From the NCBI GenBank assembly GCA_016218365.1, contig JACREF010000005.1, forward strand, positions 130 to 64,129: a stretch of DNA of 64,000 bases. The letters run 5' to 3'. Positions 4,925 to 63,811 of this stretch are shown here, piece by piece. The DNA is from Gammaproteobacteria bacterium (GTDB lineage: Bacteria; Pseudomonadota; Gammaproteobacteria; SZUA-140). Within the stretch, counting starts at the first letter, position 1. Every line of letters starts with the position of its first letter. Both the position numbers and the translations under genes were made by a program. The notes under the pieces were generated by a model. That model made no database searches. It was not told the origin of the DNA and saw only the letters and a program-made list of their open reading frames with translations.

Positions 4925-5185
4925 GCCGCGATCCCCTATACGCCCTTCGATACGCGACTGTGTCGCTACTCAGGACAGGCCCTGATGTACCGATCGTGGT
5001 GAGTAGGCGCCCTTCGATACGCGGCTGGGGCCGCTACTCAGGACAGGCTCTAAATGCCGATCGTGGTGAGTAGGCGCCCTTCGATACGCGACTATGTCGC
5101 TACTCAGGACAGGCTCTTCGATATGCAGTCAGGGCTGCTACTCAGGGCAGGCTCAAGCGCCGTATCGAACCATGAACGGTACGGA
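4925..5185. repeat. REP/BIME-like array: ~6 clustered 35-40 nt palindromic units (consensus CCTTCGATACGCGAC-N3-GTCGCTACTCAGGACAGGC plus GCCTACTCACCACGA(A/T)CGG units)
   Basis: Direct reading; same units in both orientations recur at ~22040-22265, ~27890-28255, ~60195-60365. Confidence 0.75.
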
Positions 5186-20614: not shown

Positions 20615-22039
20615 ATGACGACACCCCCGATCTGCGCCGGCAAGTTCTGCCATAACGTCGAGGCCATGGTCGACAAGGCCATCGCCGCCCTCGACATCGA
20701 CACCGGCGTCGCCGCGGCGATCAAGACCTGCCACTCGGTGTTACAGGTGAGGTTTCCGGTCAAAATCCGTGGAAAGATTGAAGTTTTCACCGGCTGGCGC
20801 GCGGTGCACAGCACCCATCGGCTGCCGGCCAAGGGCGGCATCCGTTATGCGCCGATCGCCGACCAGGACGAGGTCGAGGCGCTGGCGGCGCTGATGACCT
20901 TCAAATGCGCCGTGGTCGATGTGCCGTTCGGCGGCAGCAAGGGCGCGCTGCATATCGACCCGAAACACTATAACCGCGAGGAGATGGAGGCGATCACCCG
21001 CCGCTTTGCCGTCGAGCTGGCGCGCAAGGACTTCCTGAACCCGGCGACCAATGTACCGGCCCCGGACGTCGGCACCGGCCAGCGCGAGATGGCATGGATC
21101 GCCGACACCTACAAGCATCTGCACCCCGAGGACATCAATCATCTGGCCTGTGTGACCGGCAAACCGGTGCACCACGGTGGCATCCGTGGCCGCGTCGAGG
21201 CCACCGGCCGTGGCGTGCAATATGCGCTGCGCGAGTTCTTCCGCCACCCCGAGGACGTGGCCCGGGCCGGGCTGAGCGGCACGCTCGACGGCAAGCGCAT
21301 CGTCATCCAGGGTCTGGGCAACGTCGGCTATCATGCCGCGAAATTCCTGTCAGAGGAGGATGGCGCAGTCATCATTGCCGTCATCGAGCGCGACGGCGCC
21401 GTGATCAACGATGATGGTCTGAATATCGAAGAGCTGTACCGGCATATCGTCGAACACAAGACGATCCAGGGCTATCACGGCGGCCGCTTTGTCGCCGACG
21501 GCCTGCCGGTGCTGGAACTGCCCTGTGACCTGCTGATCCCGGCCGCACTCGAAGGCCAGATCACCGCCGCCAATGCCGGGCGCATCCAGGCCCGGATGGT
21601 CGTCGAGGCCGCCAACGGCCCGTGCACCTTCGAGGCCGACACCATCCTGAACCAGCGCGGCATCCTGGTACTGCCCGACATCTATATCAACGCCGGTGGC
21701 GTCGTGGTGTCGTATTTCGAATGGATACGCAACATCTCGCACATCCGCTTTGGCCGCATGCAGCGCCGCCTTGAAGAACAACAGGGTGACCGGCTGACGA
21801 CGGTGCTGGAGCAGGTCACCGGCACCCGTCTCGATGACACGATGCGGGCACAGATCAGCCGCGGCGCCGACGAGATCGACCTGGTGCGCTCCGGCCTCGA
21901 CGACACGATGCGGCTCGCCTACCAGGAGATGCGCCAGGTCTGGCATCACAACCCCAAGGTCCACGACCTGCGCACCGCCGCCTTCGTCATCGCCGTCGAA
22001 AAGATCGCCCGCTCCTACCTCGACGTCGGGCTGTTCTGA
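20615..22039 (+). CDS. gdh: Glu/Leu/Phe/Val-family glutamate dehydrogenase
   Basis: FGGSKGALHIDP catalytic-Lys motif, GLGNVGYHAAKFL Rossmann motif; start probably MTTPPICAG ~20615. Confidence 0.85.
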   Translation: MTTPPICAGKFCHNVEAMVDKAIAALDIDTGVAAAIKTCHSVLQVRFPVKIRGKIEVFTGWRAVHSTHRLPAKGGIRYAPIADQDEVEALAALMTFKCAVVDVPFGGSKGALHIDPKHYNREEMEAITRRFAVELARKDFLNPATNVPAPDVGTGQREMAWIADTYKHLHPEDINHLACVTGKPVHHGGIRGRVEATGRGVQYALREFFRHPEDVARAGLSGTLDGKRIVIQGLGNVGYHAAKFLSEEDGAVIIAVIERDGAVINDDGLNIEELYRHIVEHKTIQGYHGGRFVADGLPVLELPCDLLIPAALEGQITAANAGRIQARMVVEAANGPCTFEADTILNQRGILVLPDIYINAGGVVVSYFEWIRNISHIRFGRMQRRLEEQQGDRLTTVLEQVTGTRLDDTMRAQISRGADEIDLVRSGLDDTMRLAYQEMRQVWHHNPKVHDLRTAAFVIAVEKIARSYLDVGLF

Positions 22040-22265
22040 GCCTGTCCTGAGTAGCGACATAGTCGCGTATCGAAGAGCCTGTCCTGAGTAGCGACATAGT
22101 CGCGTATCGAAGGGCCTACTCACCACGAACGGCTCCATCTACCCGTTCATCCTGAGTAGCGCTGCGTAGCAGCGCGTATGGTTCGATACGGCGCTGCGCG
22201 CCTACTCACCATGATCGGTATATGTTAGGGCCTGAGTAGCGACATAGTCGCGTATCGAAGGACCC
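22040..22265. repeat. REP/BIME-like array (same family as 4925-5185, opposite orientation units CCTGTCCTGAGTAGCGACATAGTCGCGTATCGAAG)
   Basis: Direct reading; starts immediately after gdh stop. Confidence 0.75.
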
Positions 22266-22324
22266 ACCTTGACACCGTCCCGCCCCACCGCTATCATTCC
22301 AATACTCTTTGGAATGATAGCACC

Positions 22325-27889: not shown

Positions 27890-28255
27890 CGTCGGGCTGT
27901 CCTGAGACGCCCCCGTTCGTCCTAACGGGTGTTCCTGTTCCATGGCAGGTGTGGGCCGTTCGTCCTGAGTAGTGCTGCGCAGCAGCACGTATCGAAGGGT
28001 CGCCCTGAGTAGCGGCAGCATGCCTGGTATCGAAGGGCAGTAGCGCCGTCCATGGTTCGATACGGCACTGCGTGCCTACTCACCACGAACGGTCTCCTCC
28101 TCCCCGCCCGTCCTGAGTAGCGACATAGTCGCGTATCGAAGGGCCTACTCACCACGAACGGGTGTTCCTGTTAGTTCCATGGCAGGTGTGGACCGTTCGC
28201 CCTGAGTAGCGGCCAACGGCCGCGTATCGAAGGACCGCATATCCCCCACCAAAAC
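27890..28255. repeat. REP/BIME-like array (largest copy cluster; mixed orientations)
   Basis: Direct reading: GTCCTGAGTAGCG...CGTATCGAAGG and GCCTACTCACCACGAACGG units repeated ~8 times. Confidence 0.75.
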
Positions 28256-38274: not shown

Positions 38275-38525
38275 TAATTGGGGTCAGAGTAAAAACTCTC
38301 TGGCTACTAATTTTGGTCAGAGTAGCGGGTAGCCTGGGTTGAGCGACAGCGAAACCCGGGTTTCACTCCGTTCAACCCAGGCTACCTCCTATCAAAAACA
38401 CTTAAGTAAGTACCATTCGGGTCAGAGTAAAAACTCTCTATACTATTCCGTTAGCGGAGGCGATGTTAGAAAAGTTTTTACTCCAATTTAACCCCAATTT
38501 ACCATTTACAATTTACCAATTTACG
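38275..38525. mobile_element. MITE-like element, family 1 (copy 1): terminal inverted repeats GGGGTCAGAGTAAAAACTCT.../...AGAGTTTTTACTC, internal long hairpin GGTAGCCTGGGTTGAGCGACAGCGAAACCCGGGTTTCACTCCGTTCAACCCAGGCTACC
   Basis: Direct reading; near-identical copies at ~42555-42745 and ~54140-54400; related short form ~52545-52650. Confidence 0.7.
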
Positions 38526-39699: not shown

Positions 39700-39870
39700 T
39701 AGGGAAGCTCCGATCAATTCAAAAATTACCACAGCCGTCATTCCCGCGAAAGCGGGAATCCAGGTGTTCCAAGTATTTATGGATGCCCGCTGGAGCCTGC
39801 CCTCGACCTCGATCGGGGGCGGGCATGACGACAATTCGAATTAATTCAGAGCTTCCCTGCATTAACACGA
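39700..39870. mobile_element. MITE-like element, family 2 (copy a): TIRs ...CTCTGATTAATTCAAAAATTACCACAG / ...ATTCGAATTAATTCAGAG; internal hairpins GTCATTCCCGCGAAAGCGGGAATCC and GCCCGC-N-GCGGGC
   Basis: Direct reading; copies at ~51775-51900 (truncated), ~63660-63811 (perfect TIRs), fragment ~48478-48548, TIR-only palindromes ~26866-26893 and ~40548-40600. Confidence 0.7.
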
Positions 39871-42554: not shown

Positions 42555-42745
42555 CAGCAGTAAAAACTCTTCTCTATACTGGTGAGATAGAGTTTTTACT
42601 CTGACCAGAATGGCACTTACTTAAGGAGGTAGCCGGCGGGTAGCCTGGGTTGAGCGACAGTGAAACCCGGGTTTCACTCCGTTCAACCCAGGCTACCTCC
42701 TATCAAAAACGCTTAAGTAAGTACCATTCTACTCTGATCACAAAC
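42555..42745. mobile_element. MITE-like element family 1 (copy 2), with full ~120-nt palindrome GAATGGCACTTACTTAAGGAGGTAGCC...GGCTACCTCC...CTTAAGTAAGTACCATTC
   Basis: Direct reading. Confidence 0.7.
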
Positions 42746-43978: not shown

Positions 43979-44239
43979 TTTGATTCCTCCCATCGGTGGT
44001 GGAGCCCGTAAGAGATTATAGTGCGAGCATCGGCTCCGATACGCTCACCGAACATTGCGCTTGAGGCAGGCGTGTTGCAACGCACCACACGTCACTCTCG
44101 AAGCGCTTGATAGGCGCCTGCATAGGCTTACAGATGTGAAAGTGCATTTTGCACAACCTGAGCCACAGATTCTTCACGTAAAACCTTCCGCTTGCAATAC
44201 CTTGACTGAAGCCACTCTTTTGGTTACTTAGAATCAAAA

Positions 44240-44318
44240 GATATCAAAAGGGGCGGATTCTATTGAAATGATAGATACTCACCAGCCCTGGGTATACGAT
44301 TTCAATCGAATCTGACCC
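44240..44318. repeat. 78-bp direct repeat copy A (AAGATATCAAAAGGGGCGGATTCTATTGAAATGATAGATACTCACCAGCCCTGGGTATACGATTTCAATCGAATCTGACCC), left boundary of low-GC island
   Basis: ~95% identical copy at ~49340-49416; internal 14-bp inverted arms GATTCTATTGAAAT / ATTTCAATCGAATC. Confidence 0.8.
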
Positions 44319-44319
44319 T

Positions 44320-44405
44320 TTTGCTCTTTTCGTCCTGACCCTTTTGCTCTTTTCGTCCCGATTATTCGTCTCCCGATTACGCGTCCCGATTACGCCCGCC
44401 GCGAT
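44320..44405. repeat. Short tandem repeats: 2x CCCTTTTGCTCTTTTCGTCC then ~4x CCCGATTACGC(G) units
   Basis: Direct reading immediately inside island boundary. Confidence 0.7.
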
Positions 44406-44418
44406 TACGCCGCGTTCC

Positions 44419-44862
44419 TTAATAAATACTCTTGGCAGCCTTCTTCTTTGGCGACTCAATATTCGCACGCGAAGGATCATGGAAAAAGTGCTGGCAGTGC
44501 ATGCATCGCCAACCGGTAATTTCATTCTTGAGCGGAGTAACGATCTTTGTTGCTCGGCACTTTGCACAGTATCTGAGCGCAGTGAAGTGACTTACCCATG
44601 TTCCTGTCGGTTCATCCCATTGGAGCCAAGGGCGCTGAAGGAACAAGAATGCAAATAGAACCAAGCACAGCGACAGCAATAGTGCCAATAGTTTTAGGAC
44701 TGTCGTTGGCTGTTGTGCTTCCAGGGATGCCAATCGTGGCGCCAGGCTATCTTGGAGAAGCAGCACAATTCCTGGCGGTGTCGTGGCTAATAGAATCAGC
44801 GCTAGTGGCAACCACCACTTTTTTAGAAATTCACCAAGGGGCATCATTTGGGACCCTAACAC
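44419..44862 (-). CDS. Hypothetical membrane protein with C-terminal CxxC...CxxC zinc-ribbon (island cargo)
   Basis: 147 aa; two hydrophobic helices then ...YCAKCRATKIV...WRCMHCQHFFHD; low-GC codon usage distinct from flanks. Confidence 0.4.
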   Translation of the reverse strand: MLGSQMMPLGEFLKKWWLPLALILLATTPPGIVLLLQDSLAPRLASLEAQQPTTVLKLLALLLSLCLVLFAFLFLQRPWLQWDEPTGTWVSHFTALRYCAKCRATKIVTPLKNEITGWRCMHCQHFFHDPSRANIESPKKKAAKSIY

Positions 44863-44925
44863 GTTTGAGTTCAGCGGCGCGCCGCTTTTTGGCGCGTCCG
44901 CTGGAACGATTTGTTAGCGGCATTT

Positions 44926-45663
44926 TCACCGAAGTCTCGCGGCCTCTGCGGCAACGTGGCCAGCCAGAGCCGTGACAAATGTTCTGAGTCCTGTCATCGC
45001 CGACATCTCTGAAAACTCACCACTCTCAGCAGAACTGCGGGGCGACGTGATGAGGGCGGCAGTGGTGTAAAGCTGTTCCTTTACCAATTTCTGACAGAGT
45101 AAGTCATACCGGATGAGGTACGACGCCCCCTTAAACTCCTTGAAAACAGGAAAGTGCGGTGACGAATCCCTAACCGCACATCTGGATTTTGGGGCATCCT
45201 CAACCATCATCAACCAGCCAACGAAAGGGCGTGGTTGTTTGCCAAATGCCTCTTCACGGTAGGCTGTCCAGAGATCGTGCGCGGTGCCAATGGCTTCCTC
45301 GGTTCGATTGTTGAAGTTGTTCCCGAACGAGCCAACTTGGCTTTTCAGCTCGATGGCCGCGATCAACTCGCCTTTGTAGATGACAAGAAGATCCCAGAGC
45401 TTTGTCGGCCTGAAGTAGCCGGGCAGTGTCAGCATCGCCCTGTTCCGATGAATCTCGGCATGGGCAAGTCCATTGGCCCGCACGATGTCGAGTACCAAAG
45501 CCAGGAATCCGTCCATGTTCTTGCCAGCGGTAACACCAGCGCGCTCACCTTGGTCAGCCTTCCCGGACTCAATCTGCTTTTGTCTCGCTGCTTCCCGGTT
45601 TCCCCAGAAGGCTTTTACAGCCTCATGTGCCTTCTGTTCGTAATCGACAAGATCAAGCGCCAT
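44926..45663 (-). CDS. Type II restriction endonuclease, XhoI/PaeR7I-like
   Basis: 245 aa (R.PaeR7I is 246 aa), start overlaps stop of upstream N6A-MTase gene as in the PaeR7I R-M operon (M then R); family assignment by recollection of fold/size, not by alignment. Confidence 0.5.
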
Positions 45664-47403
45664 TTATTCTCCGTTGCCTCCAAGGGAGGATCGTTCTTCG
45701 TTGCTAAGTCCAAATAGTTTAAATACTGCGCGATTGCAGGCTTGCAAATCTCTCTTTTTTGCAGCGTCCGCTAGCTCCGTCCGCAACTTTGTCGAGACAT
45801 CCGCCCATTGCGGAATGCGGATGCGACGTAGGTATTGCGCCTGAAACCGGAGGAATCCGCCGCGCATTTTGGTTGAGTAGGTCGTCATGAATAGACGTGT
45901 AACGGCTGAAAGCATCACAGCTTGTAATGCCCTCAAGTCCCACTCGTCGGACGTGACATAGTAAAGGTTGTGGTGCGGGTACAGCTCCCCACCCTCAAAA
46001 ACTATATGGGCCTCGCCCTTGATGTCGGGAATCAGGAGCTTCGGCCTCGATGCCAGCTCTGGAGTAATACGGTCGATCGTGCGATACCAGTTGGCCGGGG
46101 TCTTCTGGGCGCAGTGACGACCCACGATAACCTCTCGTCGCACCTCCAAATAGCGGAGCAGGCGCGGATAGTTCCGTAACTCGACAAGACCGCCACCCTC
46201 GGCAAATGGATTGATTACGCCTTGGCCGTGCCATTGCACCTCGCCGGACATAATGTCTTTCGTTGTAACCAGCGGCAGTTTGCGATCAGACTCCACGTCG
46301 AGTGCGTCAAAGTCGCCGATATATGCCTTATCCGCGCCAGTTGCTACGCCGATACCCACCTTGCAGCCCACCTCTTCCAATCTAGGGAATTGTTTTTCAA
46401 GGCGGCGAATCAGCGCCATCTGATCCGACGATTCAAGCAACCACGGCTCCGACCCATTGGTGACTCGTGCCAGTTCGCGCACCGGCCCGGGTTCTTTCGG
46501 CAGGCTCCGCGCACGTAGCGTGTCGGCCAAGATCGCCAGCGTGGCCTGGTCGATGGTAGGGCGATGAGCAATGCGCGTCGCACCGGGTGTATCCCTGCTG
46601 ATGACGGTGATGGCCGGATAGGCGATCACCTCGGAGTGGAACGCTGGGGTGTCCATCATATCGACGTAGATTTTCAGGTGGAACTGCTCAGCCACGAGAC
46701 TGCGAAGCGGACCACCGTAACGGTTTTTCATCCAGCGATCTGCGCAAATAAAGCCCAAGCTGCCGCCTTGTTTGAGCACCATTAACGACCGCTCGATGAA
46801 CGGAATGTAGATGTCGGCCCGGTCATACATCGTCTGGTAGCGGCTACGGTACTCGGCCAGCAACGGTGTTGGAATCAGCTCTTGGCGAACATAGGGAGGG
46901 TTCCCTACAACAAAGTCGAATTGCCCTTCAAGTGGTGCAAGAAGGAAATCCCCCTGCACAAGCCAACGATCAGCAAGAGCTACTGCGGATTGATCCCCTA
47001 TCTCATCTTGCTTGAGCCGCTCGATCACGGCTGCGCGGGTGGTAGAAAAGGTCTTGCGATGCAGTTCAACAGCGCGAATTGCGTCGCCTAACTCTTCAAC
47101 TACAGTTCCTGCGTGTTGCGATGACCTCCATGCTGCCAGCAGTCGCCCGATTGCTGGTAATAGAAAGTCACCCCCACCGAATGAAGGTTCTAAAAGTCGT
47201 TTTTCATGGAGCGGTTGATCCTCCGTGTAGCCAGCCAAATCGAGGATGAAATCCACCACCTCGGTGCGTGTAAAGATTGCCCCGCGAGATTCGGCTCCTG
47301 CTGCTGTAGACAATTTTTCAATCGCAGCAGCGACCATAGGCGAATGTGTGCAAACCGAATCACCAAATAAATCAAAATTAAGCTGCCTTGATGCCAAGTT
47401 CAT
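45664..47403 (-). CDS. Type II N6-adenine DNA methyltransferase (gamma class, Eco57I/PaeR7I-M-like)
   Basis: 579 aa; catalytic motif [13 protein letters not shown], motif I region [12 protein letters not shown]; upstream partner of the endonuclease. Confidence 0.8.
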
Positions 47404-47458: not shown

Positions 47459-47857
47459 CTACGCACCATCTACGGCTTTCTTTATTGCGTCAAAGGTGAA
47501 GGACATGGCCCATTTCGCGCCGACATTTAGCAAACCTGAAGGTGTGGTATTTTGAGAATCCGTTTTTACAGCAACGATCTTCCTCTTGAGTTCGACAGCC
47601 TTGCTAATCTCCCAGGCAACCCATTTACTTATATTGGTTTTTTTCCCAACGATACACAGAAAATACGTCGCATTATTTATCTTCGCGGAGATGGCCCGCT
47701 TTATTGCAGCAGCATCCGTGCTGTCAATCGAAACGTCTGCTGAATGATCGGTGAAACCAAAGTCAAACTCTTTGTTGGCATCCCATGCCAGCAGCATGTT
47801 TTTGTAGTTCCGGTCGTTATCGTAATCGTAGCTAATGAATATCGTTTTCTTAGCCAT
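47459..47857 (-). CDS. TIR-like domain protein (DUF1863/MTH538-type)
   Basis: 132 aa; MAKKTIFISYDYDND...AIKRAISAKINNATYFLCIVGKKTNISKWVAWEI pattern of DUF1863 TIR-like domains; overlaps preceding SLATT gene by ~8 nt. Confidence 0.6.
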   Translation of the reverse strand: MAKKTIFISYDYDNDRNYKNMLLAWDANKEFDFGFTDHSADVSIDSTDAAAIKRAISAKINNATYFLCIVGKKTNISKWVAWEISKAVELKRKIVAVKTDSQNTTPSGLLNVGAKWAMSFTFDAIKKAVDGA

Positions 47858-48341
47858 GTTGTTTCTCTTTTTCGTTAGTGATATGTGCCCAAGTTGTGTT
47901 TTCTTTCGAAATTACGCCTTCCACGCGCTCGACGAGCGCGTGGAAGGCGTCATCTTCGTTATATGGCGATGTCTTTGTCATATAGAGGAATTTCTCGTGC
48001 TTGAGCGTTTCCGCCACCGTTCGGTACTCAATCCAGTTCTCTTGGAATTTATATAAGGTCACCAGACCGGAGATCACAGCAACGCAAACCGCTATTACGC
48101 CAACAATACCCTTGAGGTAATGCGTGTCGTTAGTGATTTCACTTACAAAAAACGGGATGCTCATTGCAAACACAATCTCAAGTACGCGGAGCCCTCTAAA
48201 CCATTTCTGGTTCCATTGACTCTTCTGTCCGTACCAGGCAATTTGATCATCGAGCCGATCTCGAATGTACTCTTCTGGTGACATGCGTACTCCTGTTGTT
48301 TTGCCGCTAACAGTATTTAGACGGCCGCCGCCTAGCATCAA
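47850..48341 (-). CDS. SLATT-domain protein (DUF4231, predicted 2-TM membrane effector)
   Basis: 163 aa; MSPEEYIRDRLDDQIAWYGQKSQWNQKWF, two TM helices (VLEIVFAMSIPFFV / IVGVIAVCVAVISGLV), ...YRTVAETLKHEKFLYMT; start may be internal M (MSPEEY). Confidence 0.6.
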   Translation of the reverse strand: MMLGGGRLNTVSGKTTGVRMSPEEYIRDRLDDQIAWYGQKSQWNQKWFRGLRVLEIVFAMSIPFFVSEITNDTHYLKGIVGVIAVCVAVISGLVTLYKFQENWIEYRTVAETLKHEKFLYMTKTSPYNEDDAFHALVERVEGVISKENTTWAHITNEKEKQHG

Positions 48342-48577
48342 CCGATTTGTTGTTGATCACTTATATGTCCAGCGTATAGAAGAGCGCAGTATGGCGCAAG
48401 ATCCCGGAGGAACATGGCATCTTCGCAGCGGGACATTGAGCGGCGTCACGACATGATAGGCCGCCAGCATGGCATAAACCTGCCAACTGGACTCCCGCTG
48501 CAGCCTGCCCTCGACCTCGATCGGGGGCGGGAATGACTCCTGGAGAGCGAGGCAATAACGGCAACGGGCTAATCCCT

Positions 48578-49340
48578 TTATCGGTCACGGCGCAGCCGGC
48601 CCAGCCCTTCCAGCAGCCGGTCGATACGGCCCCACAGCTGTTCACGCAACCGCGCAGCCAGCCCGCGCTGATGCCAGTCTGGATAGCGGATCTCGATGCA
48701 GTCACGCAGATCACCGTCGATGACCGCACAAACTTGGTCGGCGAACGGCTGATCATCGATCTCCTGATTGGCCTCCAGATTCCAGTGCAAGTTCCAGCGG
48801 TCGAAGTTGCTGGAGCCGATCGACACCCAGTCATCGCAGATCACCGCCTTGGCATGCATGAAGCGCGGCTGATATTCAAACACCCGCACGCCGGCACGCA
48901 GCAGCGGGCTGTAGAAGCGCCGCCCGGCATGGGCGATTGCTGGGTGGTCGCTGACCGGGCCGGGCAGCAGCAACCGGACATCGACACCGCGCTGCGCCGC
49001 CTGCCGCAATGCGCGCAGCGTGCGCCGGGATGGCACGAAATAGGCGGTCATCAGCCAGATGCGGCGCTCCGCGCCTTGCAGCCGGTAGTACAATGAACGG
49101 CGGATGTCCTGCACCCGCAACGCGACCGTTGACGCCATCGGTGACGGTTGCATCTGTGATATTGATACTTGAGTCAATCGGCGTGATCGGGCTGCGGTGC
49201 TGCTCGCGCCACACCTGCATGAACAGCGCCTGCCAGTCGACCAGCACTGCGCCTTCGATGCTGAGCATGTGCTCGCGCCAGCTGCGTTGCGGCCGGCGCG
49301 GGTGGTCAAAGTCATCGCTGAGGCCGGCGCCGCCGACAAG
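48578..49340 (-). pseudogene. 3' fragment of cardiolipin-synthase-like phospholipase D gene (second HKD domain intact, upstream part frameshifted, N-terminus missing)
   Basis: C-terminal FMHAKAVICDDWVSIGSSNFDRWNLHWNLEAN HKD motif in ORF 48578..49369; preceding cls-like segment IEGAVLVDWQALFMQVWREQ lies in a different frame (ORF 48876..49268); no first HKD; abuts repeat B. Confidence 0.6.
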
Positions 49341-49416
49341 ATATCAAAAGGGGCGGATTCTATTGACATGAGAGATACTCACCAGCCCTGGGTACGATTT
49401 CAATCGAATCTGACCC
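49340..49416. repeat. 78-bp direct repeat copy B, right boundary of low-GC island
   Basis: AAGATATCAAAAGGGGCGGATTCTATTGACATGAGAGATACTCACCAGCCCTGGGTACGATTTCAATCGAATCTGACCC. Confidence 0.8.
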
Positions 49417-49569
49417 ACTGCTGCCTCGGCATCGACGATAGGCGATTCCTTGCGACCAAGCATCGCGACCTTTTCAGGTATGATATCAAGGGCGACTACT
49501 TCATTGTGCTACGCAAGCAGCATGGCATTGGATAAACCGACATAGCCGGTGCCAGCGATGGCAATTTTC
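49417..49569 (-). pseudogene. ugd: 5' stump of UDP-glucose 6-dehydrogenase gene (ugd), ~50 codons, with in-frame TAG at codon ~21, truncated at repeat B
   Basis: Manual minus-strand translation [48 protein letters not shown] then reads into repeat B; matches Ugd N-terminus (E. coli [39 protein letters not shown]...SPIVD). Confidence 0.7.
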
Positions 49570-49629
49570 ATATCCTGCCTTTTTTGTGACTGAGCATCTG
49601 CCCTACCTGTGTATCACAATCGTGCCGGG

Positions 49630-50643
49630 TTACCTTGCTTGGGTTTTTGCCCGGTACTCTGTGTAAACTTTATTTAAACCGGCCTTCAAGGCTACACGAG
49701 CCTGCCAGCCCAGCCCCGATAAACGGGTGACATCCAGCAGTTTGCGTGGCGTGCCGTCCGGCTTGCTGGTATCAAACACCAGCTTGCCTGAGAAACCAAC
49801 GACCTCCTTGATCTGCTCGGCCAGCTCGCGGATCGTCAGGTCCTCGCCGCAGCCGACATTGACCAGTGGCAGCGTTGCAGGATTAACTTGTGAACTGAAC
49901 TGATCATCCGGCAGGTTCATCAGATAGACGCAGGCATCGGCCATGTCGTCGCTGTACAGGAACTCGCGGCGCGGTGTGCCGCTGCCCCACACCACAACCT
50001 CGTTGTCACCGCGCTGTTTGGCCTCATGCATCTTGCGGATCAGTGCCGGCAATACATGGGAGGTATTCAAATCAAAATTGTCGCCGGGCCCGTACAGGTT
50101 GGTCGGCATCACCGCCAGGTATTGGGTGCCATACTGGCGGTTATACGACCAGCACATCTCGATGCCGGCGATCTTGGCGATCGCATACGGCCGGTTGGTA
50201 GTCTCCAGCGGTCCGGTCAGCAGATACTCTTCCCTGATCGGTTGCGGGCAGTCACGCGGGTAGATGCACGAGGAGCCGAGAAACAGCAGCCGCTTGACGC
50301 CAACCCGCCATGCCTCATGGATGACATTGGTCTGGATTACCAAGTTCTGGTGGATGAACTCGGCCGGATAGGTGTTATTGGCGAGGATGCCGCCGACCTT
50401 GGCGGCGGCCAGGAACACGTAGTCCGGCCGCTGCGTTTCAAAAAATGCCCGCACCGCCTGCTGGTCGGTCAAGTCGAGTTCGGCGTGGCTGCGGGTGATG
50501 ATGTGGGTGTAGGGTGCCGTCCCCTCTCCCCGGCCCTCCCCCCGCAGGGGGGAGGGGGACGTAGCGGATGCCAGACGACGCAGCAAGGCCGAACCGACCA
50601 GGCCGCGGTGACCGGCGACATAGATGCGTGCATCCGGATTCAT
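49630..50643 (-). CDS. fcl: GDP-L-fucose synthase
   Basis: 337 aa collinear with E. coli Fcl ([41 protein letters not shown]); contains a ~17-aa in-frame low-complexity insertion near N-terminus. Confidence 0.9.
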
Positions 50644-51774: not shown

Positions 51775-51900
51775 TAATGTATGGGAAACTCTGATTAATT
51801 CAAAATTACCACAGCTGTCATTCCCGCGAAAGCGGGAATCCAGGTATTACAGGACGTTGTGGATGCCCGCTTCATGATGCCTGCTTCCAATTTGTGATTA
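51775..51900. mobile_element. MITE-like family 2, truncated copy b, flanked by ~35-bp direct duplication of the gmd start/leader (GCCCGCTTCATGATGCCTGCTTCCAATTTGT)
   Basis: Direct reading: left TIR and CATTCCCGCGAAAGCGGGAATCC hairpin present, right end replaced by repeat of 51740-51775. Confidence 0.65.
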
Positions 51901-54139: not shown

Positions 54140-54400
54140 AGTAAAAAATAAATTGGGGTCAGTAAATTGGGGTCAGAGTAGAATGGCACTTACTTAAGGA
54201 GGTAGCCGGCGGGTAGCCTGGGTTGAGCGACAGCGAAACCCGGGTTTCACTCCGTTCAACCCAGGCTACCTCCTATCAAAAACGCTTAAGTAAGTGCCAT
54301 TCGGGTCAGAGTAAAAACTCTCATCTCAAATATTCCTGACACAAATATGCCGCTAGAGTTTTTACTCTGACCCCAATTTTCCCCAATTTTCCAATTTTTT
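54140..54400. mobile_element. MITE-like family 1 (copy 4, full length with both TIRs and ~120-nt palindrome)
   Basis: Direct reading. Confidence 0.7.
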
Positions 54401-60194: not shown

Positions 60195-60365
60195 CCCTGT
60201 CATTAACCGCCGTCCATGGTTCGATACGGCGCTCGAGCCTGCCCTGAGTAGCGGCACAGCCGCGTATGGTTCGATACGGCGCTGCGCGCCTACTCACCAC
60301 GATCGGCCTCATCCTCCCCGTTCGCCCTGAGTAGCGATGCGTAGCATCGCGTATCGAAGGGCGAC
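60195..60365. repeat. REP/BIME-like array (4th locus)
   Basis: CCTGAGTAGCG...CGTATGGTTCGATACGGCGCTGCGCGCCTACTCACCACGATCGG units. Confidence 0.75.
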
Positions 60366-63659: not shown

Positions 63660-63811
63660 AGAACCTCTGATTAATTCAAAAATTACCACAGCCGTCATTC
63701 CCGCGAAAGCGGGAATCCAGGTATTACAGGCCTTTATGGATGCCCGCTGGAGGCCTGCCCTCGACCCGATCGGGGCGGGCATGACGACAATTCGATTAAT
63801 CAGAACCTCTC
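63660..63811. mobile_element. MITE-like family 2 (copy c) with perfect TIRs GAACCTCTGATTAAT / ATTAATCAGAACCTCTC, inserted between pheA stop and DAHP-synthase start
   Basis: Direct reading. Confidence 0.7.

Follow-up and report, generated by a model that had tools for sequence, protein, structure and literature searches.

Remnants of ugd and a cls-like gene at a small palindromic repeat bordering a low-GC defense segment

We analyzed a 64-kb stretch of DNA (hereafter the window) from a metagenome-assembled contig, centering on a junction where an earlier sequence-only reading had described two unrelated genes truncated at the same repeat element. The features that bear on the junction are, in coordinate order:

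44238–44318, plus strand: repeat A, 81 nt; the full extended palindrome spans ~44236–44331
44312–44409, plus strand: short tandem repeats next to repeat A
44419–44862, minus strand: ORF of 147 aa, possibly the last cargo gene; no match in Pfam, PADLOC or NCBIfam
44926–47403, minus strand: type II restriction-modification (R-M) pair (Pfam XhoI, E = 8e-104, and Eco57I, E = 2.6e-24; PADLOC REase_II and MTase_II)
44926–45663, minus strand: XhoI-family endonuclease of the R-M pair
45664–47403, minus strand: Eco57I/N6 methyltransferase of the R-M pair
47459–47857, minus strand: ThsB-type TIR-like gene (Pfam ThsB_TIR, E = 1.2e-20; PADLOC ThsB, E = 3.4e-19)
47850–48341, minus strand: SLATT/DUF4231 two-TM effector gene (Pfam DUF4231, E = 2.5e-24, and SLATT_1, E = 7e-15; NCBIfam SLATT_1, E = 3e-40)
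48488–48537, plus strand: host-type dispersed repeat module just 3′ of the cls stop, with further copies at 39780–39829 and 63737–63786
48578–49337, minus strand: ClsB-type PLD pseudogene fragment, codons 131–386 of a 386-aa protein (Pfam PLDc_2, tblastn and three-frame translation)
49338–49416, plus strand: repeat B, 79 nt, its right arm without the outer part; it ends ...CTGACCC where repeat A continues TTTTGCTCTTTT
49417–49424, no strand assigned: junction filler of 8 nt (minus-strand sequence GCAGCAGT) that separates repeat B from the last recognizable ugd codon
49425–49571, minus strand: ugd pseudogene stump, codons 1–49 of a 388-aa UDP-glucose 6-dehydrogenase (translation, Pfam PF03721 and relatives)
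49630–50643, minus strand: intact fcl, GDP-L-fucose synthase (Pfam Epimerase, E = 1.6e-67), upstream of the ugd stump

The ugd stump, which is unannotated, begins with an ATG at 49571 on the minus strand, 58 nt 3′ of fcl. The sequence-only reading had recognized the start of a UDP-glucose 6-dehydrogenase just outside repeat B, with an in-frame TAG where Ugd proteins have glutamine, and both observations proved sound. With Q replacing the stop, the translation matches positions 1–50 of UDPG_MGDP_dh_N (PF03721; E = 3.6e-9) and contains the N-terminal, NAD-binding Rossmann start with its GxGxxG motif. Alignment to the full-length 388-aa Ugd proteins of relatives revealed significant similarity (71–86% identity, E down to 9e-23), with only residues 1–49 aligning. 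Minus-strand translation places the TAG at codon 21 (49509–49511), which is CAA or CAG in six relatives. Intact Ugd relatives carry all three domains (PF03721, PF00984 and PF03720); the stump has no uninterrupted frame with the central, catalytic domain and the C-terminal UDP-binding domain. Because of the TAG at codon 21 and the end of homology after codon 49, we regard the stump as a pseudogene remnant and not as a Ugd. A tblastn search with six Ugd proteins found no further ugd pieces in the whole 64 kb, and a protein search for an intact paralogue with the 49-aa stump as the query gave a candidate list taken up by short partial proteins, with none from the source MAG among those listed. 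The likely loss of UDP-glucuronate synthesis proposed by the sequence-only reading is therefore best put as a possibility. The gene had been described as cut after ~50 codons exactly where the repeat begins. The length holds, at 49 codons, but the cut is not exactly at repeat B: after Glu49, where the relatives read ATT GAA GAC, the window reads GCA GCA GT and then enters the repeat. The earlier coordinates likewise hold except at their end, as the ugd start codon lies two bases beyond it.

The neighboring fcl, whose product is identical to MBI5449885.1 (annotated GDP-L-fucose synthase), is the last intact gene of manC-cysC-gmd-fcl. Comparison of this neighborhood among relatives showed fcl and ugd adjacent in some of them. 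In some Gallionellaceae-like MAGs a 388-aa ugd comes right after fcl as the first gene of a polysaccharide cluster. One contig (L048) has the full 388-aa ugd directly 3′ of fcl, and downstream of it an SDR epimerase, a Wzx-type flippase, methyltransferases and a glycosyltransferase. Two others have a ugd start directly after fcl, with a copy that exits the contig (L049) or ends at 77 aa (L031); in a further contig (L033) a 266-aa Wzz-domain ORF separates the two genes. The relative with the best Fcl match outside the source (78% identical) has methyltransferases, not ugd, after fcl. Our searches found no same-species relatives (best Fcl match 78%, best cls match 69%) and, in relatives, no left-flank synteny. 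At the window's locus, ugd formerly stood 3′ of fcl, as it does in some relatives. The window carries none of the polysaccharide genes that follow ugd in L048; left of repeat A there is an ArsM-like gene and no glycan gene.

The cls-like fragment, the 3′ two-thirds of its gene, adjoins repeat B at the edge away from ugd. Its ORF (48578–49369, minus strand) matches PLDc_2 with E = 1.7e-30. When an intact 386-aa homologue (P0001, accession MBI5450712.1) was used as the tblastn query, residues 131–202 were placed at 49337–49116 and residues 201–377 at 49138–48608 (E = 7e-128), in different frames; the ORF of the second frame continues to a stop codon at 48578. This mapping shows that the frameshift is real and that the gene is cut off precisely where the repeat begins, in agreement with the earlier description of a cls 3′ fragment with a frameshift abutting repeat B. 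The frameshift lies at ~49116–49138 and would fit a 17-nt deletion between GTCGCGTTGCG direct repeats, a deletion deduced from protein comparison only. The first HKD motif of P0001 spans residues 114–136 and the fragment begins at residue 131; instead of two HKD motifs (HxKx4D) in one polypeptide, it has only the second motif and the second PLDc_2 domain. P0001 itself scores 222.8 bits against NF008427 (ClsB), below the cut-off of 281, so we name it no more precisely than a ClsB-like PLD-family protein. The annotated 263-aa "hypothetical protein" HY940_00850 is this frameshifted fragment fused to repeat-derived codons.

A search for a cls paralogue bears on what the fragment is a remnant of. 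P0001 is 90% identical to the fragment and is encoded on a different contig, almost certainly of the same MAG. The fragment ORF (MBI5449884.1) and fcl (MBI5449885.1) have consecutive numbers, so the accessions follow gene order, and P0001 comes 828 proteins further in the series. The next-best homologue among 5.8 billion proteins is 69% identical. The GC content of the fragment (62–65%) is host-like, unlike that of the low-GC cargo. Since an intact, 90%-identical protein is apparently present in the same genome, the piece is best described as a redundant, dead partial copy. Thus, the gene is truncated, as the sequence-only reading had it, but it is not the wreck of the genome's own cls.

Between the two repeats lies a segment of defense genes. 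The TIR and SLATT genes are on the same strand and overlap by 8 nt in a two-gene operon, which would qualify as type VII Thoeris (a ThsB TIR with ThsH), as this pairing has been described (bioRxiv 10.64898/2025.12.03.692087). Mobilizable plasmids of Aeromonas, Klebsiella and Pseudomonas carry R-M modules to which the pair is 76% identical at the nucleotide level. GC content is 44–56% across 44.0–48.3 kb and ~60% in the flanks. As in genomic islands, direct repeats bound both ends of the segment (79 and 81 nt, 96% identical); it has neither an integrase nor a tRNA, and no recombinase or transposase domain was found in any cargo or neighboring ORF. Gene content, composition and plasmid matches support the view that the repeat-bounded segment is a horizontally acquired, low-GC defense cassette. 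Support from an independent assembly comes from a single 1.76-kb Logan contig (SRR12113407), which is 100% identical over window positions 44280–46039; it runs from the interior of the island into the inner side of repeat A and ends inside that repeat. Exact-protein look-ups of Fcl, ManC, Gmd, the TIR protein and P0001 yielded no independent assembly of the junction.

Copies A and B lie 5.1 kb apart in direct orientation and differ by two substitutions and a 2-nt indel. The element previously put at 78 bp is real and measures 79–81 nt. It matched twice in the window versus not at all in 100 shuffles, and there is no third copy in the 64 kb. Overall the element is ~80–100 nt long, with inverted arms of ~22–30 nt and a loop of ~28 nt; its arms, GGGGCGGATTCTATTGAAAT and GGGTCAGATTCGATTGAAAT, are terminal inverted repeats like those of MITEs. 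The extended fold of copy A gave z = -4.7, and none of 200 shuffles folded as well. Copy B, whose right arm, facing ugd, is missing its outer 5–16 nt, gave z = -1.1 in its flanking context, where the long hairpin was not recovered, and z = -2.4 as the 79-nt copy alone. Beside copy A, a 23-nt unit that begins with the element's last 7 nt (CTGACCC) occurs twice in tandem, followed by three 28-nt copies with offsets of 13 and 15 nt and a common CCCGATTACG-like core. On the minus strand, the long hairpin and a T-rich tail (TTTTGATATCTT) may terminate the manC-cysC-gmd-fcl transcript. Such a passive, terminator-like role is the sole plausible present-day activity of the element.

The repeat does not correspond to a described element. 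A tRNA or tmRNA target was rejected, as the window contains no tRNA, and so was a known RNA family, as Rfam gave no match. An attC site was also rejected: the RYYYAAC and GTTRRRY cores are absent, as neither GTT nor AAC occurs anywhere in the element. Searches found no plasmid-borne homologue of the repeat region and no similarity to any described repeat family; among viral contigs a single match to the repeat arm was found, and it duplicates a metagenome match. Relatives with the arm CAAAAGGGTCAGATTCGATTGAAAT and adjoining short tandem repeats do occur, in unrelated metagenome contigs. As with REP sequences and REPINs, the arms form inverted doublets (in the window, L087 and L094) and also occur singly between ORFs (L086 and L088); L097 has a pair of arms in the same orientation. 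The tandem repeats just outside the right arm recur in the window, L087 and L094. A full-length IS between paired arms in L086 was considered and rejected because the intervening ORF is not a transposase. The element represents a repeat family that had no name before, and other environmental bacteria carry relatives of it. It resembles Neisseria Correia MITEs, REP doublets/REPINs and ERIC in its size of ~80–100 nt, its inverted arms, its position between ORFs elsewhere, its occurrence as single arms and inverted doublets, its presence at rearrangement junctions and its terminator-like hairpin with a T-tract. It differs from them in having no sequence similarity, no target-site duplication, no identified cognate transposase or RAYT, and short tandem repeats outside the right arm.

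That the contig comes from a MAG raises the question of whether the junction exists in any one genome. An assembler could have merged two loci or two strains across a common repeat copy: the largest k-mers that assemblers commonly use exceed the repeat in length, the sole independent contig stops inside repeat A, and strain mixing could account for the presence in one bin of two cls sequences that are ~90% identical. The two copies of the repeat differ at three sites, however, so they would not be expected to collapse in a de Bruijn graph, and the Logan contig is an exact match to the interior of the island and to repeat A on its inner side. Even with a mis-join, each gene would still stop at the edge of the element, and each remnant bears an inactivating lesion of its own (the TAG in one, the frameshift in the other), as fragments that died long ago should. 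We therefore judge an assembly or binning artifact to be very improbable.

The terminal inverted repeats of ~22–30 nt suggest another origin for the truncations, in which an active or recent MITE independently hit ugd (at ~codon 50) and a second copy of cls (at codon 131), after which homologous recombination between those two direct copies, or a transposase-driven adjacent deletion, fused the 5′ end of ugd to the 3′ end of cls with loss of all intervening DNA. Consistent with such a history, ugd and cls are on the same strand and one element copy marks the cut in both, relatives of the element occur in other metagenomes as doublets and single arms, and other dispersed repeat families are plentiful in this genome. 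Several features of the window argue the other way. Neither copy has a target-site duplication, and the flanks of A and B have no duplicated bases in common. A clean insertion would have kept the outer 5–16 nt that copy B is missing. Host repeat families have copies dispersed along the window, whereas this element has only two in 64 kb, both exactly at the borders of the foreign segment. The window also lacks a transposase, and the element sits between ORFs in those other metagenome contigs that we examined. We consider independent MITE insertions unlikely. The arrangement of two direct copies bracketing a few kilobases of cargo also recalls MITE-flanked composite units, such as integron mobilization units and MITE-bounded resistance regions, from which the window differs in the absence of a flanking target duplication and in the truncated outer side of copy B. 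Simple insertion of a composite transposon into ugd is excluded because the 3′ part of the gene was not found beyond repeat A or elsewhere in the window.

A different possibility arises from one of the metagenome contigs. In L087 a truncated 3′ HerA_C-like fragment (921–1189) is followed by the element (1196–1285), short tandem repeats, a cargo ORF and a second element copy (1816–1904), and from position 1907 onward by a fuller, 93.7%-identical copy of the HerA_C-like gene that exits the contig end. If the window segment were circularized, it would read cargo, tandem repeats, element and cls 3′ fragment, which is the order in L087. The hairpin with an adjoining 3′ gene fragment might then define small integrative cassettes that use a piece of a host gene as a homology arm for a single crossover. 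The cls fragment would be either the targeting arm or the displaced end of the target, and insertion on the ugd side would have been off-target, at a resident hairpin copy. The fragment's nearest relative by far is the intact copy of the same MAG, as this would predict. The geometry is that of Campbell-type integration of circular DNA, in which a truncated 3′ fragment abuts the insert and an intact copy persists. The likeness is clear in L087, but the window has no intact cls beside the fragment, whose neighbor is the unrelated ugd stump. Moreover, L087 is the one outside example on which the idea is based, nothing similar to ugd or cls occurs in the 245 nt past repeat A, and neither cargo, in the window or in L087, includes a recombinase, replication or transfer gene. 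Ordinary homologous recombination accounts for L087 with no need for a dedicated system. We accordingly think it very unlikely that the window holds such a cassette, and we give similarly little credence to the broader proposal that hairpin, tandem repeats and abutting 3′ fragment constitute an undescribed family of recombinase-less integrative cassettes.

The reading that we favor, and hold to be probably correct, is that the region is a non-functional scar in which two pseudogene remnants were joined via one small palindromic repeat at the right edge of a 5.1-kb segment, bounded by repeats, that carries imported defense genes. The segment would have entered by recombination at the hairpin element, leaving one hybrid copy at each end and bringing in the cls 3′ fragment, the host-type repeat, the TIR and SLATT genes, the XhoI-type R-M pair, the 147-aa ORF and the short tandem repeats. 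A deletion that ended where the right arm of the hairpin has its base, before or after this acquisition, would have removed ugd from about codon 50 on, together with any polysaccharide genes beyond it. The right arm of copy B is itself interrupted, which makes the junction look like a deletion endpoint at the hairpin and not like a clean insertion. The stump's TAG and the 17-nt deletion of the cls piece would then represent later decay under no selection.

This history resembles that of junction pseudogenes at islands and variable polysaccharide loci, where a low-GC, horizontally acquired defense cassette has on its flanks truncated genes that have also gained nonsense and frameshift lesions; as there, the window's cassette is bounded by direct repeats beside a nucleotide-sugar operon. 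The window differs in having no integrase and no tRNA target. It also differs in that its cls remnant is redundant, with an intact counterpart elsewhere, and is host-like in composition yet lies inside the repeat-bounded segment. The sequence-only reading had the element mediate these events. Both genes are indeed cut at one copy of it, and the repeat is a plausible cause of the ugd and cls truncations; the window offers no recombinase, target-site duplication or additional copies that would raise mediation above plausible.

The junction is ordinary genome scarring and not a new system. Its main value lies in annotation, where a stump and a hypothetical protein can be named for what they are, and in reading the history of this genome: the nucleotide-sugar operon manC-cysC-gmd-fcl has lost its downstream partners where the defense cassette now sits. 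Loss of surface glycans paired with gain of phage defense is commonly seen. If small cassettes did use a host-gene piece or the hairpin as a handle for integration by recombination, and carried defense or other cargo between loci, the element would be of wider interest, although the evidence for this is thin.

Read on the minus strand from an ATG at 49571, the DNA downstream of fcl (GDP-L-fucose synthase) encodes a start resembling UDP-glucose 6-dehydrogenase (Ugd) and then passes into repeat-derived codons. With Gln put for the stop, this ugd stump matched the first 50 positions of Pfam UDPG_MGDP_dh_N (E=3.6e-9), and it aligned to the full-length 388-aa Ugd of related loci over residues 1-49 only, at 71-86% identity. 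Codon 21 is TAG (49509-49511); the codon is CAA or CAG in six relatives, and CAG to TAG is one C-to-T transition. These results agree with the sequence-only reading, which had described a ugd start carrying TAG at a Gln position and cut off after ~50 codons. Eight nucleotides of uncertain origin (49417-49424) lie between Glu49 and repeat B, one of two palindromic elements ~5.1 kb apart, and Ugd proteins of related loci found no further ugd segments in the whole 64 kb. The remnant lacks 87% of its length and carries a nonsense codon, and the conclusion that it is dead is robust.

We found no close relative of the source lineage in the collections, the best outside Fcl match being 77-78% identical. 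Among the best 80 fcl loci, a ugd start comes directly downstream of fcl in L048, L049 and L031 (MAGs of Gallionellaceae and Nitrosomonadales), confirming the fcl-ugd adjacency for some relatives. The order in L048 is gmd-fcl-ugd, SDR epimerase, Wzx-type flippase, methyltransferases and glycosyltransferase; in L049 the contig ends within ugd. In L033 (Sideroxydans), fcl and ugd have a 266-aa Wzz-domain ORF between them, and the closest Fcl relative has methyltransferases after fcl; what follows fcl therefore varies. The ugd of L031 (1369-1600 of a Gallionellaceae MAG contig) stops early at 77 aa and diverges from Ugd sequence past about residue 55; this may be a second case of ugd decay at that position, or an error of sequencing or assembly. 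No glycan-related genes lie beyond the stump in the window, and the stump thus shows where a nucleotide-sugar/polysaccharide cluster was broken off; the loss probably went beyond ugd. Beyond repeat A, the other element copy, come an ArsM-like gene and then a FadL-type porin.

The window's Fcl, annotated by NCBI as GDP-L-fucose synthase, has a 16-aa in-frame insertion relative to its relatives (50520-50562, minus). A perfect, GC-rich hairpin (CCCTCCCCCCTGCGGGGGGAGGG) codes for these residues, which fall in the loop that follows the N-terminal Rossmann motif. The gene is otherwise intact, and the insertion has the look of a REP-type repeat that landed in frame. Short dispersed palindromic repeats of several unrelated families crowd the window, mostly between genes; they include CCTGAGTAGCGACATAGTCGCGTATCGAAGG-type units and two families of 146 nt and ~125 nt, the second with CGTCATTCCCGCGAAAGCGGGAATCCAGG inside.

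Example sites of dispersed palindromic repeats
4939-5180, 22035-22280, 27956-28233, 60210-60361
38289-38434, 42600-42745, 54173-54318
39704-39829, 51784-51898, 63661-63786

On the other side of repeat B, the cls piece (ORF 48578-49369, minus) has a single PLDc_2 domain (E=1.7e-30). A search of 5.8 billion proteins with the conceptually repaired fragment gave two key matches, after which the best was just 69% identical. One is the window's own 263-aa ORF (MBI5449884.1, HY940_00850), on a 128,809-nt contig labeled 'MAG: Gammaproteobacteria bacterium'. The other, P0001 (MBI5450712.1), shares 90% identity and is intact: a PLD-family protein of 386 aa, encoded on a 272,597-nt contig with the same organism label. 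The accession of the window's Fcl (MBI5449885.1) directly follows that of the fragment ORF, and the numbering therefore reflects gene order; P0001 stands 828 proteins further along the series. This intact paralogue almost certainly belongs to the same assembly.

tblastn with P0001 placed residues 131-202 at 49337-49116 and residues 201-377 at 49138-48608 in another frame, open to a stop codon at 48578. This mapping and the PLDc_2 match bear out the earlier description of a frameshifted C-terminal HKD half abutting the repeat. The fragment starts exactly at the repeat edge, within the first HKD motif region (P0001 residues 114-136), and therefore retains the second catalytic motif only. At the frame switch, the two frames of GGCGTCAACGGTCGCGTTGCGGGTGCAGGAC give GVNGRVA and VALRVQD, where P0001 has GVNGRVAPAVALRVQD; judged from the protein sequence, this would fit a 17-nt loss between two copies of GTCGCGTTGCG. 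The GC content of the fragment (62-65%) is similar to that of the host flanks, and a host-type dispersed repeat follows it, with other copies at 39780 and 63737. Missing one catalytic motif, frameshifted and redundant with an intact copy, the piece is robustly a dead remnant, and 'redundant partial copy' fits it better than 'destroyed gene'. An assembly chimera is a very improbable source of the junction, since neither gene would be restored and it conflicts with the independent decay lesions in both remnants.

Copies of the repeat in the window
44238-44318, repeat copy A
49338-49416, repeat copy B

Two substitutions and one 2-nt indel distinguish the copies. The element is palindromic, with arms GGGGCGGATTCTATTGAAAT and GGGTCAGATTCGATTGAAAT around a ~28-nt loop, and contains no attC-type core; no Rfam match to it and no tRNA were found. 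The stem of copy A reaches outward to about 44236-44331 (fold z=-4.7). Copy B ends in ...CTGACCC, where copy A goes on TTTTGCTCTTTT; its right arm is therefore incomplete on the outer side, and its long hairpin fold is lost in context. This puts the junction with ugd within the element and not at its tip. That two MITEs inserted here and then recombined is unlikely, as target-site duplications are absent at both copies, the arm of copy B is truncated, and the window holds no other copies, even with five mismatches per arm. Just inside repeat A, short tandem repeats (44312-44409) start with the element's last seven bases (CTGACCC): a perfect 23-nt tandem duplication (CTGACCCTTTTGCTCTTTTCGTC x2) adjoins the repeat, followed by three overlapping 28-nt copies at offsets of 13 and 15 nt with a common CCCGATTACG-like core.

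Genes between the repeats, with family profile matches except where stated
47850-48341, minus, SLATT/DUF4231 gene
47459-47857, minus, ThsB-type TIR gene
45664-47403, minus, Eco57I/N6 methyltransferase
44926-45663, minus, XhoI-family endonuclease
44419-44862, minus, 147-aa ORF without family match

GC content between the repeats is 44-56%, compared to about 60% outside, and neither the segment nor the neighboring genes include a recombinase or transposase. The R-M pair (44933-47288) has 76% nucleotide identity over 2.36 kb to R-M modules on some 100 plasmids, most of them in the mobilizable class, with Aeromonas, Klebsiella, Enterobacter, Citrobacter and Pseudomonas as the main hosts. The plasmid match ends at the two R-M genes, and the cargo is therefore a mosaic. 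The TIR and SLATT genes (47459-48341, minus) overlap by 8 nt. Their predicted domain pairing is that of type VII Thoeris, a cADPR-producing TIR with the SLATT effector ThsH, named in a 2025 preprint (bioRxiv 10.64898/2025.12.03.692087); PADLOC 2.0 detects the TIR half only. A Logan contig (SRR12113407) is 100% identical to 44280-46039 and ends within repeat A. Near its 3' end, the SLATT gene contains a perfect-centre palindrome (47911-47953) with 21-nt arms 95% complementary (ATTACGCCTTCCACGCGCTCG/CGAGCGCGTGGAAGGCGTCAT), listed on the plus strand by a terminator scan. The 147-aa ORF, unmatched in Pfam, PADLOC and NCBIfam, is hydrophobic over its N-terminal half and carries a CxxC...CxxC motif in its C-terminal part.

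Scanning metagenomes with the arm consensus yielded 18 contigs, several of them true relatives in which the arm match extends to 26 nt (CAAAAGGGTCAGATTCGATTGAAATC). L086 and L088 carry single arms between ORFs, while L087 and L094 have inverted doublets with 28-31-bp stems (z about -7). As at copy A, short tandem repeats lie just outside the right arm of related elements, at the same element end in L087 (GGTTCCTGGTG, about three copies) and L094 (CTTTTGGTTCG x2).

Features of metagenome contig L087
921-1189, truncated 3' fragment of a HerA_C-like gene
1196-1285, first element copy
between the element copies, tandem repeats, then a 161-aa cargo ORF
1816-1904, second element copy
1907 onward, fuller HerA_C-like gene copy, 93.7% identical, off the contig end

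Within L087 900-2357, the element pair and its cargo stand between direct duplicates, 269 nt long and 93.7% identical, of the HerA_C-like gene's 3' end, the pattern of Campbell-type, single-crossover integration of a circle with a partial gene. L087 and the window share the local order cargo, tandem repeats, element, gene 3' fragment. This analogue favors a dedicated cassette mechanism, but it is the only one, and we consider such a mechanism distinctly improbable. The most economical history for the junction has two steps, segment acquisition and a hairpin-end deletion. Recombination at the hairpin element would have brought in the repeat-bounded segment, comprising low-GC defence cargo and a host-lineage cls fragment; a deletion ending at the hairpin base, palindromes being known hotspots of deletion endpoints, would then have taken ugd from about codon 50 onward.

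Collectively, the sequence-only reading described the locus accurately and was right to see wreckage at an island junction, both pieces being dead remnants; the repeat is a plausible cause of the junction events, and UDP-glucuronate synthesis, which that reading took as likely lost, may have gone with ugd. The locus is an ordinary genome scar with an unnamed representative of the small palindromic repeats, and holds little of interest beyond the cassette idea, to which L087 lends weak support.
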